The notes under the pieces: model-generated
Told to the model about the DNA's origin: nothing
Seen by the model: only the letters and a program-made list of their open reading frames with translations
Databases searched by the model: none
In this document: positions 10,228 through 57,650 of the stretch, in pieces
Layout: every line of letters begins with the position of its first letter
Position numbering within the stretch: position 1 is the first letter of the stretch
Program-made: the position numbers and the translations under genes
Source: Candidatus Iainarchaeum sp.
GTDB lineage: Archaea > Iainarchaeota > Iainarchaeia > Iainarchaeales > JAZDDZ01
Length of the DNA stretch: 64,000 bases
Direction: 5' to 3'
NCBI GenBank assembly: GCA_043809245.1
Contig: JAZDDZ010000054.1
Span: forward strand, 1-64,000

Positions 10228-12861
10228 ATGCTTGCAAAGAGAATTAGTTACGTTGAATTCCAGGTGCTTGGGCCGCAGATGATAAGGAAAATGAGCGGCC
10301 TCGAGATCAAAAGCCCTGAGACTTACGATAAAGACGGGTTTCCAATGGAGTCAGGCTTGATGGACCCGCACTTGGGAGTCATTAACCCGGGTTTGAGGTG
10401 CAAGACTTGCGGCCAGAAAATGAAGCAGTGCCCAGGGCACTTTGGCCATTTGGAATTGGTTAGGCCCGTTGTGCACGCGGAGTTCTCGCGAAAAGTGGAG
10501 ATTTTAATGCACGCCACGTGCATGGAGTGCGGAAGAATAGCGTTGCCGGAGGAAAAGCTGAACCAGTTGCGCACGCTCATCGGCTCGGAAGCAGAGGGGC
10601 TTGCAAAAAAAATTGTTGTAAAAACAAAGAAAGTGAAAAAGTGCCCGCACTGCAGCGGTGAAAGGAAAATAGTATTGCTTGACAAGCCGACAAACTTTTT
10701 TTACGGGGACGCGAGGATTTACCCCACGCAGATAAGGGACTGGATGGAGAAAATCCCCAACAAAGATTTGCTGTTAATGGGCTACAACACGGAAAAATTA
10801 AGGCCGGAGTGGTTTGTGCTAACCACAATGCAGGTTCCGCCGATAACAATCAGGCCCTCAATCACTTTGGAGTCGGGAATAAAATCAGAGGACGACTTGA
10901 CGCACAAATTGGTTGACATTATCAGGATTAACATGCGCTTAAAGGACAACATTGAGGCAGGCGCACCACAGCTTATCATCGAGGACTTGTGGGATTTATT
11001 GCAGTACCATGTCACGACTTACTTCAACAACAACACAGCGGGTGTTCCCCCCGCAAAGCACAGGAGCGGAAGGGCTCTGAGGACATTGGTGCAGAGGCTG
11101 CAGGGAAAAAAAGGAAGGTTCAGGTACAACTTAACGGGAAAAAGGGTTAACTTTGCGGCAAGGTCAATAATTTCTCCCGATGCTTGGATTGAGATAAACG
11201 AACTGGGTATTCCTGAAGAGATTGCAAACGAATTGACTGTTCCCGAGTACGCGAATGAAACAAACCTCAAGGATTTGAAAAAGCTCATAACCGATTCAGA
11301 CAGGGTTGTTTACGTCAGCAGGCTGAACGGAATGAGGAAAAAGGTAAGCGAGCTTACAAAGGAAGAGATTGCAACCGAATTGGAAGTCGGCTTCAAGGTT
11401 GAAAGAAAGCTGCAGAACGGCGACATTGTTTTGTTCAACAGGCAGCCTTCATTGCACAGGCTTTCAATGCTTGCACACAGGGCAAGGATTTTGCCTGGAA
11501 AGACTTTCAGGATGAACCCCATAATTTGCAAGCCTTATAATGCGGATTTTGACGGCGATGAAATGAACATGCATGTTCCGCAGACAGAGGAAGGAATAAC
11601 CGAGGCAAGGGAGCTGATGAGCGTTGAAAACCAGGTCATAAGCCCCAGGTACGGCGGGCCGGTCATTATTCTGGATGAGGATGGAGTTAGCGGAGCATTC
11701 ATTTTGACTTTAATTTCAACGAAGTTTTCAAGGGAGGACGCAATGCAGTTCTTCCAGGTAATGGGATTGGACGAGCTGCCAAAGCCAGATGATGGAAAGG
11801 AGTACAGCGGAAAGCTTATTTTTTCACAGATGCTTCCGAAAAACCTGAACATTGAATACAAGACAAAGGCCTGCTCTTTGCTGCAGAAAATCTCGGCATG
11901 CGAGTCGTGCACCAAAGAAAAATGCAAGCACGACGCCTACCTCAAAATAGAGAACGGAAAGCTCGTGAGCGGAGTCGTTGACGAAAGGTCTTTGGGCGAG
12001 GGAAAGGGAATCCTTGTTGACACGCTTGCAAGGAATTATGACAGCAGCGTTATACTTAATTTTTACTCTAAGATGGGGAAAATCGCCGAGCTTGTTGTGA
12101 GCACAGTGGGAATGACAGTTAGCCTTGAGGAATACGAGGAAAGCGAAAGCGTGAAACGCATAAAAGAAAATGCATTCAAGCGCCTGTTAGAGGAGGCTGA
12201 TGAGGTTGTTAAAAAATTCAGGCACGGAACCCTGGAGCACATCCCTGGAAGGACATTAAAGGAATCATTCGAGCTGCAAATGATGCGCTTGGCTGCAAAG
12301 GCAAAGGACCACGTGGAGAAAGCAATTTTGAAGGAAAAGATTTTGGAAACGCTTGGAAGCAAGCCGAAGTACAATACAACAGTGATGATAATGAGCGGTT
12401 CAAGGGGAAGCACCACGAATTTGACAAACATTTCCGGGTTCTGGGGCCAGGCAAATGTGAGGGAAGGAAGGCCGAGCAGGGGATTCAAGAAAAGAGTCAT
12501 CACCTTGAACAAGAAAGACGACGTTGGAGTCATTGCAGGCGGATTCATTCCGCACAGCTTCATGCAGGGAATGGATGCATTTGAATACTTTTTCCACGCA
12601 ATGGGCGGAAGGCAGGGAGAAGTTGACACAGGTGTTTCAACAAAGGTTTCAGGCTATCTCTACAGGCGCCTTGCAAACTCTTTGAAGGACCTTGTTGTCG
12701 CGAACGATTACACTATCAGGACAGCGAACAAGAATATCATTGAATTCATTTACGGCGAGGACGGGGTTTTCCCGAAAAACACGCTGAGGGGAAAAAGCAT
12801 AAACGTCGGAATGGAGTTCGACAAGTTCAAAGCTAACGCAGAGAAAAAGGAAGCGAAGTGA
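10228..12861 (+). CDS. rpoA1: RNA polymerase subunit A' (Rpo1N)
   Basis: CPGHFGH, NRQPSLH, catalytic NADFDGD. Confidence 0.97.
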   Translation: MLAKRISYVEFQVLGPQMIRKMSGLEIKSPETYDKDGFPMESGLMDPHLGVINPGLRCKTCGQKMKQCPGHFGHLELVRPVVHAEFSRKVEILMHATCMECGRIALPEEKLNQLRTLIGSEAEGLAKKIVVKTKKVKKCPHCSGERKIVLLDKPTNFFYGDARIYPTQIRDWMEKIPNKDLLLMGYNTEKLRPEWFVLTTMQVPPITIRPSITLESGIKSEDDLTHKLVDIIRINMRLKDNIEAGAPQLIIEDLWDLLQYHVTTYFNNNTAGVPPAKHRSGRALRTLVQRLQGKKGRFRYNLTGKRVNFAARSIISPDAWIEINELGIPEEIANELTVPEYANETNLKDLKKLITDSDRVVYVSRLNGMRKKVSELTKEEIATELEVGFKVERKLQNGDIVLFNRQPSLHRLSMLAHRARILPGKTFRMNPIICKPYNADFDGDEMNMHVPQTEEGITEARELMSVENQVISPRYGGPVIILDEDGVSGAFILTLISTKFSREDAMQFFQVMGLDELPKPDDGKEYSGKLIFSQMLPKNLNIEYKTKACSLLQKISACESCTKEKCKHDAYLKIENGKLVSGVVDERSLGEGKGILVDTLARNYDSSVILNFYSKMGKIAELVVSTVGMTVSLEEYEESESVKRIKENAFKRLLEEADEVVKKFRHGTLEHIPGRTLKESFELQMMRLAAKAKDHVEKAILKEKILETLGSKPKYNTTVMIMSGSRGSTTNLTNISGFWGQANVREGRPSRGFKKRVITLNKKDDVGVIAGGFIPHSFMQGMDAFEYFFHAMGGRQGEVDTGVSTKVSGYLYRRLANSLKDLVVANDYTIRTANKNIIEFIYGEDGVFPKNTLRGKSINVGMEFDKFKANAEKKEAK

Positions 12862-21859: not shown

Positions 21860-24800
21860 ATGAAACACAAGCGCTGGCTGCTATTTTTTCTTTTCATCAC
21901 AGTATTCGCAATCAATGCAGCTGCAGACCTGATTTCCTGGCAACAGTCAACCAACACTGCATGGGATTCTGCAAAAGGCGGGCACGCAGCAGTTGTGTTT
22001 AACGGAAAAATGTGGGTGCTTGGCGGAAGCAGCGCGGCAGGCGGACCCTACAGCAATGATGTGTGGTCTTCAGTTGACGGAATAACCTGGGCAAAATCCA
22101 CAATCACTTCCCCAAGCATGTGGGATGCCAGGACAAGCCACACAGCAATTGTTTATGACAACAAGATTTGGGTTATGGGTGGATGGCACGGCCCTAATGA
22201 CGACAGAAGCGATGTATGGTATTCGATTGACGGCTCATTTTGGACAAGAGCCACGCAAAACGCGCCTTGGGGTGAAAGGTCAGGGCACGCAGCAGTTGTC
22301 TTTGACGGAAAAATGTGGGTACTCGGAGGCACAGAAGTTTCTGCAAGCGGTACTGTAACTTATTTCAATGATGCATGGTGGTCAACAGACGGAACAAACT
22401 GGACACAGGAAACTGCAAGCGCGCCATGGGGTGCAAGATTCGGTCATTCGGCAGTGGTCTACAACAACAAAATTTGGGTTATCGGTGGAAAAGAACAAGG
22501 CATTGACCCAAGCGTATGGAAAAAAGACGTTTGGTCATCATCAGCTGATGGGACAAGCTGGGCAATGAATTCAAGCATTGGAATGCAGGGCAGAGGCGAA
22601 CTGGCAGCAGTAGAGTATGACGGCAAGATGTGGGTTTTCGGGGGATATTATATTCCTGAGTTTAGCGCAAGCCTATCTTTTCCCCGCGATGTGTGGTACT
22701 CAACAGACGGCACAACATGGGCAAGGGACACAAGCACTGCAGGCTGGCCTGGAAGGAAAGACTTCACGGCGCTTGTTTATTCCGGCAAAATATTTCTGAT
22801 GGGTGGGGTAAATGGATCCGGCGGAGCAGATTATCTCAGGGATGTGTGGACAAGCAACTGGATAAGTGGCTGCCCAGACAGCCAAAGGATTTTCAGAATC
22901 AACGCAACAACAAACGCGCACGGCGAGCAATGGAACCTTGCAAATTACTCAACGGAAATATGCGTTCCTGCAGCGCTTCAGGCAGCCTATGTTCCAGGGG
23001 CAACACCACACGCATGCACAGCAACAAACCAAGTTGTAAGGCTTTACGGAACAACACCAATAACAAACGCACACGGAGAAAGAACACAAGGCACAACCGC
23101 GGGCTATTCCAATGTCTGCCTTGGAAACCTTCAATGCATTACAAGAAGCGATAGCTGTGATCCAGGAGAAACATGCGTTGTAAAACTCAGCGACCTCACA
23201 AACGCGCACTTTGAAACCTGTAGTGAAACAAATTACAATTACTTTGTGTGCTGCAATGTGCCTTCCGGCCCTGTTCCGAATTTAAGCGCTGAGGCCGGCG
23301 GCCCTTATAATGAAACAACTGGTGTGCTATTTTCTTTGGCTGGCGCTGCAATAGGCGGAACCCCGCCCTACAATTACAGCTGGGCAATTTCTCCAGGAGC
23401 AGGATGCCCGGCAAGCGCTTCAGGGCAAAACCCGTCAATTACCTGCACGGGAGAGGGAAGCAGCACTGCAACGCTCACGGTAACAGACTCTACGGCGAGC
23501 ACCGACACAGATGATGCTCCAATTACTGTAAGCGCTCCGCCTGCATGCACGCCGACTGAAACACCAAACGAATTAACGTGCAATGACGGGTTTGACAACG
23601 ACTGCGATACACTAATTGACTGCTCAGACCCTGACTGCAGTTCTGCATCAAACTGCATTTCGTGCACGCCAACGGAAGTGCCGGAAATCACCTGCGATGA
23701 CTTAACCGATAACGACTGCGACAATTTAATAGACTGCGCAGATCCGGATTGTTCAACAAGCCCTGCATGCATAACAACTTGCACCCCAACAGAAAGCCCA
23801 AACGAACTTACATGTGATGATGGAATTGACAATGACTGCGATGGATTGTTTGACTGCGGGGACAGCGACTGTTCAAGCGCGGAAAACTGTGTTTCAAACC
23901 AGCCGCCGACTGCAACGCTTAGCGCGAACCAAACAAGCGGAACACAGCCATTTAATGTAACGTTTGACGCGCAATGCAATGACAGTGACGGAACAATTTT
24001 TTCCTGTGAACTTGATTTCGGCGACGGTTCAGCTCCAATTAACATTGGTTCAGGCACCGCGAATGTAAGCGGAAGCCCAAGCCACAGTTACAATAACCCC
24101 GGAACTTTTAACGCAGTTTTGACTGCGGTTGACAACCAAGGCGCAATTGATACTGACACGGCAACAATAATGGTCAGCGCTTCAGGAACACCAAGCTGCA
24201 CAGTAATCCTAAACCCAAACCAAATTGAAACCCAGACAGGAACAACAAGCGTTGAAGTAAGCTATCTGAATACTTCAAACCCAACATTTCAGGTCACCTG
24301 TGGAGACGAATCATCAAACACGCCATCACAAACCTGCAGTTCATCTCCCTGCCCAATCGGCAACTGCGGAGTGTATACATCAACTGGCTACACAAACATC
24401 ACGGCAACAACAATTGGAGGCTCAGAAAACGCCAACTGCTTCGAACGCCTGACAATAAGCAATCCAGGCTGCAACGACGGAACCTTTACACCTGCAACCG
24501 AGGACTGTGAACCAGGAGTAAATGAAACCGCATGCACAGGCGCAACGCCTGAATGCAGCACGATTACCTGCAATTGTATAGCCGCATCCTCTTCAGATGA
24601 CTATATTTTATCAGTAACCGTTACTCCTTTCTCTGTGCCAAACGATGGTTCCAGCACTGCAACTGTCAAGGCATTGCTTTCAAACAATTTTGAGATAAAT
24701 CTGGAGATACTTAACGGGGTGACAAACCAGCCAGTGGCGGGAATCCCTTTAATAGCAAAATCACCCACTGCCGCTGCGCCAAAAGAAGTGGAATTTATCC

Positions 24801-33223: not shown

Positions 33224-33688
33224 ATGGGCTGGTACGGCGTATTTTTGGTCCCGAAACTGAAGCTGTGCTTCTACTTAAGAAGCGTTGACCAAGGCGTTCT
33301 TGAATCGCATTTCGAATCTCTGGACAGATTTTTTGACAAGCATGACAAGCTAAAAGAAGACAGCCCCCCCACAGATTCAAGTAATGTTTACACTTCAGGC
33401 TACTGCTGCTCAGGAACATGGCAAACAACAAGCTGCACACCCGCTCAGCAATGCACAGTAAATATAGCAACGCCGTGCACGATTTCAATTGCAGGAGGCA
33501 CAATCAATTCCTGCACACAGCAGAATCTCATCTACCAATACAACGCAACGACAACAGTGAACAACACAGTCAACGGATTACAAGCAAGCAAAGCATACAA
33601 CATCAAAATAGAAAACACGACAACAGGGGCAACACAAAACAAAACTGTAAGCACCAACTCTGCGGGAGTGCTGCAGTTCAGCAACTGA
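33224..33688 (+). pseudogene. Chimeric ORF: 46 unrelated N-terminal residues fused to orphan 3' fragment 2 of the 186..3338 family
   Basis: From ~33362 aligns with 3009..3338; last 89 aa show 16 differences; no signal peptide. Confidence 0.8.
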
Positions 33689-48902: not shown

Positions 48903-49063
48903 GCGAAAAAGGAAAACTTGGCTTTGGAAAAACGCAGTCCGCGGGAAAAAAGTGCAGGAGATGCAAGAACAGGCGCGGGCTTATCTCAAAGTATGGAATG
49001 AAGCTTTGCAGGCGCTGCTTCAAGGACGTTGCCTTGCAGATGGGTTTCAAGAAATTCGATTAG
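48899..49063 (+). CDS. rps14: 30S ribosomal protein S14 (54 aa, absent from ORF track)
   Basis: MSEKGKLG..CRRC..GLISKYG..LCRRCF..MGFKKFD*; between rpl5 and rps8. Confidence 0.95.
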   Translation: MSEKGKLGFGKTQSAGKKCRRCKNRRGLISKYGMKLCRRCFKDVALQMGFKKFD

Positions 49064-49096
49064 TGAGATTAATGAAAGATTTAGGAAAAATATATA

Positions 49097-49157
49097 GAGG
49101 AAGGGAATCGGGAGGAACCTGGAACTGAAGGGAAACCTAGGTTTCCCTGCGGTTCGG
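49097..49157 (+). repeat. Structured intergenic element, copy 1 (two hairpins)
   Basis: 51/62 aligned columns identical to 56933..56993; contains AGGGAAACC-TA-GGTTTCCCT. Confidence 0.88.
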
Positions 49158-49181
49158 ATGGGGTTCAAAAAATTTGACTGA
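49158..49181 (+). pseudogene. Duplicate rps14 3' end (MGFKKFD*), synonymously diverged
   Basis: ATG GGG TTC AAA AAA TTT GAC TGA vs ATG GGT TTC AAG AAA TTC GAT TAG (49040-49063). Confidence 0.88.
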
Positions 49182-56261: not shown

Positions 56262-56900
56262 TTGGTTTTTATGGCTGAAGAAAAACAGGAAAAGAAAGGC
56301 GCACAGCAGAAAGACGGGGGCCAGCGCCAGCACAAGCAGCCTTACTCAAAAGACCTGAGGCTCAGGGCAAGGGACACAGAAGACAAGGATGTTAGGTACA
56401 TTGTCAGAATTGCGGGAAAGGACCTTGACGGAAGCCTTCCGGTTTACCATGCGGTTCAGTCAATTAAGGGAATAGGCCAGAGAATGGGAAAAATAATCGC
56501 ATTTGCGTTTGAAAAGGAATCAGGCATTGGCTCTGAAACTCCTTTGGGAAAAATTCCCGAAGACAAGGACAAGGCATTGGAGGAAATAGTTCTGCATCCC
56601 GAGAAATTCGGGGCGCCTTCATGGACACTTAACAAGCGCAGGGACTTTGAAACAGGCTTGGACTGGCACCCTGTAATGAACGACTGGGATTTTGGAATAA
56701 GAAAAGACGTGCAGAGAATGGCGGAGACAAAATCTTACAAGGGATTAAGGCACATGTGGGGCCAGCCAGTGAGAGGGCAAAGGACAAAGAGCACGCACAG
56801 GGGCAAAGGCCCTGTTGTAGGGGTAATGAAGAAAGACGCAGGCAAGCCAGGCGCCGCGGCAGCACCCGGGGCAAAAGGCGAAAAGGAAAAAAAGAAATAA
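56262..56900 (+). CDS. rps13: 30S ribosomal protein S13
   Basis: IVRIAG.D, IKGIG, SYKGLRH, PVRGQRT. Confidence 0.96.
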   Translation: MVFMAEEKQEKKGAQQKDGGQRQHKQPYSKDLRLRARDTEDKDVRYIVRIAGKDLDGSLPVYHAVQSIKGIGQRMGKIIAFAFEKESGIGSETPLGKIPEDKDKALEEIVLHPEKFGAPSWTLNKRRDFETGLDWHPVMNDWDFGIRKDVQRMAETKSYKGLRHMWGQPVRGQRTKSTHRGKGPVVGVMKKDAGKPGAAAAPGAKGEKEKKK

Positions 56901-56932
56901 AAAAAGGAGCTAAGATGAAATAAAAATCTGCG

Positions 56933-56993
56933 GAGGAAGGGGGTCAGGAAGACCCTGAAACTGGGGGGAAACCCTAGGTTTCCCGCGGTTTGG
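56933..56993 (+). repeat. Structured intergenic element, copy 2 (two hairpins)
   Basis: TCAGG-AAGAC-CCTGA and AAACTG..GGGAAACC-CTA-GGTTTCCC..CGGTTT; homologous to 49097..49157. Confidence 0.88.
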
Positions 56994-57011
56994 AAGGAAA
57001 AGAAAAAGTGA
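56994..57011 (+). pseudogene. Duplicate rps13 3' end (KEKKK*), synonymously diverged
   Basis: AAG GAA AAG AAA AAG TGA vs AAG GAA AAA AAG AAA TAA (56883-56900); low complexity lowers confidence. Confidence 0.65.
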
Positions 57012-57017
57012 TGATTT

Positions 57018-57650
57018 ATGGGCGACCCGAAAAAAACCTCAAGGCAGTATGAAAGGCCGAAAAAAAGATGGCAGAAGCAGAGGATAGAGAGCGAGAAGAA
57101 GATACTTGAAATCTACGGCCTGAAAAACAAAAGGGAATTAAGGAGAGCCGAGACAATTTTAAGGAAGAAAAGGCAGAGCGCAAGAAAGCTCCTTGCATTG
57201 CCTTTGGAGAAAAGGGAGAAAAAGGAACGCGAACTCGTTGAAAGCCTGATTAGAATGGGGCTGTTCAAGGCAAAGGCAACAGCCGACGACATCTTAAGCC
57301 TTTCAATTGAGGAACTTCTTGAGAGAAGGCTGCAGACAATCATCTGGAGAAAAAACCTGGCAAAGACAGTCAAGCAGGCAAGGCAGTTCATCGCCCATGG
57401 GCACATTGCGGTTAACGGAGTAAAGACAACAAGCCCGAGCTACATTGTAAGGCACGGCGAAGAGGCAAAAATAGCCTATTACAAGAGGCCGATAATGCTT
57501 GAACCCCCAAAAAAAGACTCAAAGGAAAAAATGAAGAAAGCATTCGAGGAAGCAGCGCCCGCAGCAATTGAAGCCGCAGAGGAAGCAAAGGCAGGGGCAG
57601 TTGAAGCCGCGGCTGAAAAGAAAGAAACTCCTGTGGAGGCAAAGCAATGA
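57018..57650 (+). CDS. rps4: 30S ribosomal protein S4
   Basis: MGDPKK, YGLKNK.E, ERRLQT, ARQFI.HGHI. Confidence 0.97.

Follow-up and report, generated by a model that had tools for sequence, protein, structure and literature searches.

A short non-coding element was found at two gene junctions of an archaeal ribosomal-protein cluster, each time lying between the end of a gene and a second, silently different copy of that same end. The cluster is located in a stretch of 64,000 nucleotides (nt) from Candidatus Iainarchaeum sp. (assembly GCA_043809245.1, contig JAZDDZ010000054.1, positions 1 to 64,000 of the forward strand), which is called the window below. The feature at the rps13-rps4 junction is probably the insertion of a small non-coding mobile element that duplicated its target, the downstream copy being the displaced original end of rps13. 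An original prediction made from the window had described the same element at the rps14-rps8 and rps13-rps4 junctions, followed in both cases by a recoded gene end, and had proposed a retargetable recoding mechanism. The rps13-rps4 junction (window positions 56262-57650) is organized as follows.

56262 to 56900, + strand: rps13 (uS13) gene, with a TAA stop at 56898-56900 (open reading frame list and sequence)
56883 to 56900, + strand: upstream repeat copy, the working rps13 end (KEKKK-stop; sequence comparison)
56901 to 56911, + strand: filler of 11 nt between stop and element, unlike that of the other copies, with an AAGGAG-type ribosome-binding motif inside (11-copy comparison)
56912 to 56932, + strand: A-rich 5' extension of the element, common to most of the 11 copies of this genome (11-copy comparison)
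56933 to 56993, + strand: 61-nt element core, with a purine-rich 5' part and a long 3' hairpin closed by the last two bases
56994 to 57011, + strand: downstream copy, probably the original rps13 end, now displaced (KEKKK-stop, TGA), which overlaps at its end the ribosome-binding region of rps4
57018 to 57650, + strand: rps4 (uS4) gene (open reading frame list)

The core was recognized with 78.8 bits (E 3.6e-17) by a covariance model, R1, built from 24 copies of the element. The predicted order was confirmed by the sequence: the rps13 stop is followed by 32 nt (56901-56932), by the 61-nt element, which is GC-richer, and by the 18-nt repeat with its second KEKKK-stop, the whole feature covering 129 nt, and the rps4 ATG at 57018 stands 6 nt past the TGA of the downstream copy. 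The two 18-mers are identical at 14 of 18 positions; the four synonymous codon changes counted earlier are correct if the stop is included, being strictly three synonymous changes and one stop-to-stop change. The downstream copy had been taken as the native end coupled to rps4, and it does run directly into the native intergenic sequence and contains GTGAT, a motif complementary to the 3' tail of the genome's own 16S rRNA. The rps13 end was matched at 14 or more positions by 28 of the 127,966 18-mers on both strands of the window (counting the gene end itself and its downstream copy), giving a chance of about 2e-4 at a place fixed beforehand. In a family-wide flank test, where the 110 nt before each copy were compared with the DNA right after it and 1500 flank pairings between different copies served as the null, the rps13 repeat scored 9.0, between the 95th (7.5) and the 99th (10.0) percentile.

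The instance at the rps14-rps8 junction is real as well and has an identical layout.

49040 to 49063, + strand: upstream copy, the working rps14 end (MGFKKFD-stop, TAG; sequence comparison)
49064 to 49096, + strand: filler of 11 nt (49064-49074) followed by a 22-nt 5' extension (49075-49096; 11-copy comparison)
49097 to 49157, + strand: 61-nt element core (covariance model match, 79.1 bits)
49158 to 49181, + strand: downstream copy, the probable displaced rps14 end (MGFKKFD-stop, TGA), ahead of the native spacer and rps8

The 24-nt repeats around this copy agree at 18 of 24 positions and encode the same peptide, MGFKKFD-stop. Just 2 of 127,954 words in the window matched the rps14 end equally well (chance below 2e-5 at a place fixed beforehand), and the repeat score of 12.5 was significant against the 99th percentile of the family-wide null. 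The upstream rps14 copy uses codons that are rarer in this genome than those of the downstream copy (GGT 5%, GAT 32%, TAG in 3 of 32 stops). The near-identical spacing reported for the two junctions (33 nt for rps14, 32 nt for rps13) was reproduced; it results from a shared 5' extension of 21-22 nt and a filler of 11 nt. The claim of one and the same element at both places holds at the level of the family, the two cores being approximately 85% alike, and because of this low similarity repeat finding and searches allowing three mismatches failed to join the two copies of the window.

Flanking repeats were examined for all 54 distinct copies of the family, whose individual loci are given as L-numbers and whose genomes as G-numbers (G000 being the genome of the window). 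A significant repeat, i.e., one above the 99th percentile of the null, was present in 18 of them. All these repeats began 0-2 nt past the 3' end of the element and were 15-52 nt long, with identities ranging from 100% to 77% (from 20/20, 22/22, 15/15 and 39/41, the last with a perfect stretch of 35 nt, down to 20/26). The rps13 repeat gains its credibility from this group, since it starts at the same spot as the repeats of these 18 copies. Mostly the repeats covered the end of the upstream gene with its stop; some reached on through the spacer into the first codons of the gene behind it, while L158 and L159 had duplicated tRNA 3' ends. Perfect or near-perfect repeats occurred at L136 (35-nt perfect stretch), L004 (20 nt), L033 (22 nt) and L137, which indicates that the repeat was made from local DNA at insertion, so that the target was duplicated and not written as a recoded version. 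The remaining 36 copies lacked a significant repeat, a few of them having matches of 6-8 nt. Retargetable recoding of gene ends was therefore not supported, given the perfect repeats of young copies and the many copies without a significant repeat; the term 'retargetable' is best read as 'mobile', for which a recoding machinery is unnecessary. There is almost no spacer DNA in these genomes and an insert at a junction is viable only when both gene ends are kept, so that insertions with long repeats may be the ones that pass selection.

The synonymous-only differences noted at the two junctions turned out to be real and general across the family, with nothing special to the window. In 15 repeats that ran into an open reading frame, 128 codons were compared by coordinates (L033, L053, L158 and L159, into which no open reading frame of at least 140 nt runs, were omitted), and the differences comprised 22 synonymous, 3 nonsynonymous and 4 stop-to-stop changes, with no stop-to-sense change and no additional stop in any copy. 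One of the three nonsynonymous changes lay at the outermost edge of the L136 repeat. Counted by codon positions 1, 2 and 3, the differences numbered 3, 1 and 22, respectively. The synonymous share among random changes is 17%, and free drift of the displaced copy, with one fifth of the changes allowed in the constrained copy, had P = 3e-8. Neutral decay of the displaced copy in place was thereby excluded, and the displaced gene ends resemble sequences on which protein-coding constraint still acts.

The element consists of the 61-nt core, extended to approximately 83 nt in this genome by further A-rich 21-22 nt present on the 5' side of most of its 11 copies, and whole inserts measure about 60-110 nt without an open reading frame. 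The 3' two-thirds of the core form one long hairpin, in which the final two bases make a closing pair with an internal CC. Of the cells, 98.6% were paired, and the covariation score of 0.152 (vs 0.088 in shuffles) was reached by none of 500 shuffles. The pair next to the hairpin end was CG in 15 copies, UA in 4 and GC in 3; the inner stem was longer in some copies on both sides in step, and among the copies of this genome inner hairpins differed wholly in sequence with complementarity kept. The 5' third of the core is purine-rich and conserved in sequence, without supported pairing. The 3' boundary was sharp, in contrast to the ragged 5' side with fillers of 0-40 nt. The 5' part of the element was partially repeated just upstream at L003 (G010:C2) and at L134 (G000:C4), a possible trace of how the 5' end is formed. 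Terminal inverted repeats were absent, the two element ends not being complementary to each other, and a search of the window against Rfam 15 gave no match at gathering thresholds, with matches around the rps14 instance at chance level. A resemblance to helix 45 of 16S rRNA was rejected, because alignments to the genome's own 16S scored 17-21 at unrelated places.

The R1 model found 11 full-length copies in the genome of the window and, across the order, copies in 9 of 151 genomes (15, 11, 6, 5, 2, 1, 1, 1 and 1 copies). A strict sequence pattern was found in 3 of 196 genomes, that is, in two further genomes of the order. When a genome collection was scanned with patterns, 13 of 22 matches were full elements; these all came from archaeal assemblies of DPANN type, which bore the labels Micrarchaeota, Iainarchaeum, Aenigmatarchaeota, 'Methanobacteriota archaeon' or 'uncultured archaeon', whereas the other nine were bacterial and lacked the remainder of the element. 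Of 63 matches in metagenomes, 17 were full elements. Cores from different phyla were about 92% alike when read by eye, while the L5 and S14 DNA was at most 71% identical within the order. On these sequence comparisons the element clearly moves between distant lineages and is patchily spread in DPANN archaea. The claim that it occurs at unrelated genes was borne out by copies at many unrelated loci. An assembly artefact is unlikely to account for the layout, which recurs in assemblies of several projects. One public DNA run, in which 6% of the sampled words occurred, yielded only scattered pieces of ribosomal genes of other organisms and was uninformative. A link to viruses was rejected, since none of six pattern matches in viral contigs was a full element. 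Apart from this family, a different short repeat was noticed that has the same palindromic hairpin core with a C/T-rich CCCCTTCC-like block directly after it (L030, L035, L069/L127, L080, L128 and others); such CCCCTTCC-type repeats were hosted by bacterial-looking contigs and by two contigs labelled as giant-virus assemblies.

All 11 copies of this genome are co-oriented with the gene that they follow, precede or interrupt. Besides the rps14/rps8 and rps13/rps4 junctions, they occupy the S24e/S27ae junction, a site upstream of L21e, the genes of the two DNA polymerase D subunits, the junction of a nucleoside-diphosphate kinase gene with the next gene and that of a NYN-domain gene with a DUF2226 gene; one copy lies within an FKBP-type gene, whose tail is cut off. 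At L140 (G000:C9, core 3125-3185) the element lies in frame in a phosphoglucomutase/phosphomannomutase-type gene, to which it adds about 31 residues, without a stop, between domains I and II; the orthologues of relatives align on both sides and lack this insert. Sites elsewhere included the L30/L15, S5/L30 and S6e/aIF2-gamma junctions as well as positions abutting tRNA ends. In three lineages (L056, 2043-2103; L010; and L175, G165:C4) the element was located some 36 nt before the 5' end of the 23S rRNA, with identical flanks and with differing spacers and hairpin subtypes. At L058 and L087 it sits in a tRNA anticodon loop, and its excision in silico restored a full cloverleaf (in 39 and 63 of 532 cut combinations, respectively); L028 gave odd tRNA parses only and the antisense copy L072 none, both having been placed in tRNA genes by eye. 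In three cases, again read by eye, 3 nt separated the element 3' end from the 3' strand of the anticodon stem that follows. The insert in the anticodon loop of tRNA-Ala at L087 (~11276-11391) holds two oppositely oriented copies, whose inner hairpins are different but complementary.

In the favoured reading, the element would have inserted a few bases past the rps13 stop, its target being duplicated in the process; the upstream copy would thereby have become the working end of rps13, while the downstream copy, left untranslated, would have stayed joined to the native ribosome-binding region of rps4. Both neighbour genes would remain intact after such a duplication, and in this way insertions of the kind could survive in tightly packed operons. 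The insertion itself would be run by the replication or recombination of the host, through a template switch or an illegitimate join, as suggested by the raggedness of the 5' end, the variable repeat length and the lack of an accompanying transposase or reverse transcriptase; the sharp 3' end at the hairpin end, the 5' fillers and self-duplications, the co-orientation and the purine-rich targets point in the same direction. The restriction of the differences to silent sites may, tentatively, mean that the two copies came from different working alleles or lineages. For this the element would cross between lineages and enter conserved genes with a piece of donor flank, leaving a donor-type end, a fixed boundary and the resident end in this order; alternatively, one flank would have been overwritten later by recombination that stopped at the element. 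A two-lineage origin fits the rarer codons of the upstream rps14 copy and the DNA beside upstream copies, which could not be aligned with native spacers. A larger exchange, in which the whole rps8-rps13 block was swapped between lineages via the two elements, was also considered; no break in composition was seen, and identity ranks of the flanking proteins among 29 relatives had no power.

Several observations weigh against the insertion with target duplication or its two-lineage extension. The rps13 match taken alone is marginal, and the caution given with the prediction, that the match was short and of low complexity, was justified by the family-wide test. A long duplication is not obligatory upon insertion, as the copies without a repeat demonstrate. 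No empty-site allele was found, the relatives being too distant and the one public run uninformative, nor was a donor lineage found with the L5 and S14 DNA across 196 genomes (best identity 71%), and recombination at about 75% identity, as needed for the most diverged pairs, is expected to be very rare. The divergence of the repeats forms a continuum of 0-23%, which resembles gradual in-place change more than discrete donors, and this genome contains no near-identical sister even for copies with perfect repeats, an oddity if they had transposed within it recently. Finally, RVT_1 had no match in six carriers, G000 (91.8% complete), G010, G165, G151, G156 and G004; Y1_Tnp was present only in G000 and G156 of these six, and DDE_Tnp_1 was absent from the carriers G010 (15 copies) and G165 (6 copies). 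The enzyme search covered four protein families in carrier genomes that were 75-97% complete, so that absence is not proof. A parent transposon was rejected as well, the R1 model finding no copy at the Y1_Tnp or TnpB loci of this genome. A short fragment of a DDE-type transposase (23.9 bits) was noticed at G000:C53:1242-1397, on the opposite strand about 60 nt from the copy C53:1458-1517.

An alternative that we regard as unlikely is divergence in place, the repeats having been identical initially and the displaced copy kept coding-shaped by selection. Either the element is lost by slippage between the repeats, whereupon the displaced end works again and its damage is a recurrent cost, or a fraction of the RNA has it taken out in the manner of an intron and both copies are translated. 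The continuum of identity from 100% to 77%, with silent-only differences at each level, favours such a history, as do the copies in tRNA anticodon loops and before the 23S rRNA, which sit where RNA removal is required or usual, and the in-frame insertion at L140. On the other hand, slippage should cease at about 20% difference, yet the most diverged pairs are still codon-clean; the distances between repeat starts had no bias toward multiples of three (remainders 0, 1 and 2 in 6, 5 and 3 cases), which also led to the rejection of translation through the element; and neither strict nor relaxed scans detected a consistent bulge-helix-bulge motif at the mRNA copies or a peak of cut positions over the 54 copies, although these scans are weak evidence, as they also missed the expected tRNA sites (at L087 a 3' bulge with a helix of four base pairs could be drawn by hand). 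Quite improbable, in our judgement, is a homing-type selfish element acting as a natural 'home and rescue' drive between DPANN lineages, analogous to the man-made gene drives of that name. Its unit would be the upstream gene end together with the element, the flank finding the matching gene, inserting ahead of the resident end and supplying a silently diverged replacement, so that the host would depend on a gene end that arrived with the element. The architecture (a working recoded end, a stop, the cargo and an untouched original end) would suit it, and so would the crossing of phylum boundaries, the targeting of the most conserved genes (ribosomal proteins, tRNAs, the rRNA operon and DNA polymerase D subunits) and the atypical codon usage of the upstream rps14 copy. 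Against it, perfect repeats at non-conserved sites of the same genome (L136, L137) imply that the flank can be made locally, two-thirds of the copies (36 of 54) have no significant repeat, there is no nuclease or guide-like partner, and no donor with a matching upstream copy turned up.

At rps13 itself, it is very improbable that the element is real but nothing was duplicated, the 18-nt match being a coincidence between purine-only stretches rich in Lys and Glu codons. The score below the 99th percentile would allow it, exact 13-15-mers of like composition exist elsewhere in the window and KEKKK occurs five times in plus-strand frames. Such a coincidence would, however, have to begin exactly at the element 3' end, as in 18 other copies, with its stop in register with that of the gene and with all three codon differences synonymous, besides the chance of about 2e-4 at the fixed place. 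Hardly credible, finally, is an RNA or promoter module recruited by highly expressed operons for processing, stability or a start signal, with spread and repeats as side effects. The uniform co-orientation with genes in this genome speaks for it, together with the position of many copies 3-50 nt ahead of a start codon or tRNA, the hairpin conserved with compensating changes, and an A/T-rich 5' extension that in this genome resembles, by eye, a putative TATA-type box; no Rfam family matched it, however, within the order it is confined to 9 of 151 genomes, at differing loci, copies lie inside genes (L140) and antisense in a tRNA intron (L072), and the rps14-rps8 junction of relatives is devoid of it. 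A comparison of junctions in element-free relatives had been proposed for rps13-rps4 and was carried out at rps14-rps8. None of 29 relatives carried the element there, and the junctions were short (3-51 nt, one of 86); all relatives, at 71% DNA identity at best, are too distant to tell which silent codons are the older ones.

Compared with described systems, the element works most like a MITE (miniature inverted-repeat transposable element) or a REP-type repeat, but it lacks inverted ends and a fixed duplication, and no parent element was found. Like these extragenic hairpin repeats, it is small, non-coding, multi-copy, patchy, hairpin-forming, mostly intergenic and oriented with genes. In contrast to a MITE, it has no terminal inverted repeats, its flank repeats are long, variable and often missing where those of a MITE are short and fixed, and no parent insertion sequence was found with the three transposase families tried. 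The hairpins derived from IS200/IS605 (PATE/REP) differ in that Y1_Tnp was restricted to two of six carriers and that flank repeats accompany 18 of 54 copies here. The precise 3' end, ragged 5' end and flank repeats of variable length recall the target-primed reverse transcription of short interspersed elements, although no RVT_1 was detected in the six carriers, whose genomes are incomplete. Selfish hairpin DNA inside genes is known from the Rickettsia palindromic elements, to which the in-frame, stop-free insertion in a conserved enzyme gene at L140 is similar; most copies of the present family, however, are at gene junctions with duplicated ends. Mobile tRNA introns have been reported in archaea of the Thermoproteales, and L058 and L087 resemble them in interrupting the anticodon loop of a tRNA that is whole after excision; unlike in those cases, rps13 and rps14 are complete without removal, L072 is antisense, and introns are without flank repeats. 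In fungal mitochondria endonuclease elements, and elsewhere elements integrating at the 3' ends of tRNA and protein genes, bring a replacement gene end with them. The likeness is a working gene end beside the element and a displaced similar end beyond it, whereas those elements are kilobases long with an endonuclease or integrase and the inserts here have about 60-110 nt and no open reading frame.

Two further parallels concern the variable repeats. Target duplications of 8-514 bp have been described for IS1634/IS1549, with no model proposed for them (PMC2266710). Their highly variable length is the shared trait, while those insertion sequences are 1.5-2 kb long and possess a DDE transposase and inverted ends, the element here having neither an open reading frame nor inverted ends. 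In bacteria, homology-facilitated illegitimate recombination brings in foreign DNA through homologous crossover on one side and illegitimate joining on the other (PMC3240628). Such an event would leave a gene end of donor type, a fixed boundary of the element and a variable repeat, but it does not account for the perfect repeats at new sites in one genome. Based on a narrow search of full-text literature and on Rfam, the family appears, provisionally, to be an undescribed and very small mobile-element family of DPANN archaea.

The family reaches the most conserved parts of tiny genomes, i.e., ribosomal-protein operons, tRNA genes, the rRNA operon and the DNA polymerase D operon. Duplication of the junction would be a simple way to tolerate an insertion in an operon without spare DNA, as both genes keep their ends. 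The codon-clean state of the displaced ends points to an exchange of gene ends between lineages, to frequent precise loss of the element or to its removal from RNA, and each of these three readings would inform on gene flow or on RNA processing in organisms that are difficult to culture. Such elements will escape gene callers and repeat finders, and the short reading frames left over may be mis-annotated.

Some minor features were recorded near the element loci and elsewhere in the window. The gene for the small subunit of DNA polymerase D at L137 (G000:C44) has an intein with a LAGLIDADG domain, and at L133 (G000:C49) a long open frame of more than 600 residues also carries a LAGLIDADG-domain intein. 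In the window, positions 241-1101 and 2164-3024 form several diverged direct-repeat blocks 1923 nt apart that are 71-85% identical, and a pair of 264 nt at 3067-3330 and 33417-33680, 30 kb apart, is 84% identical, both being probably duplicated genes. At 21980-22644 there are five copies of a 47-nt unit with a spacing of about 150-160 nt and 66-89% identity, which looks like a gene for a repeat-domain protein.

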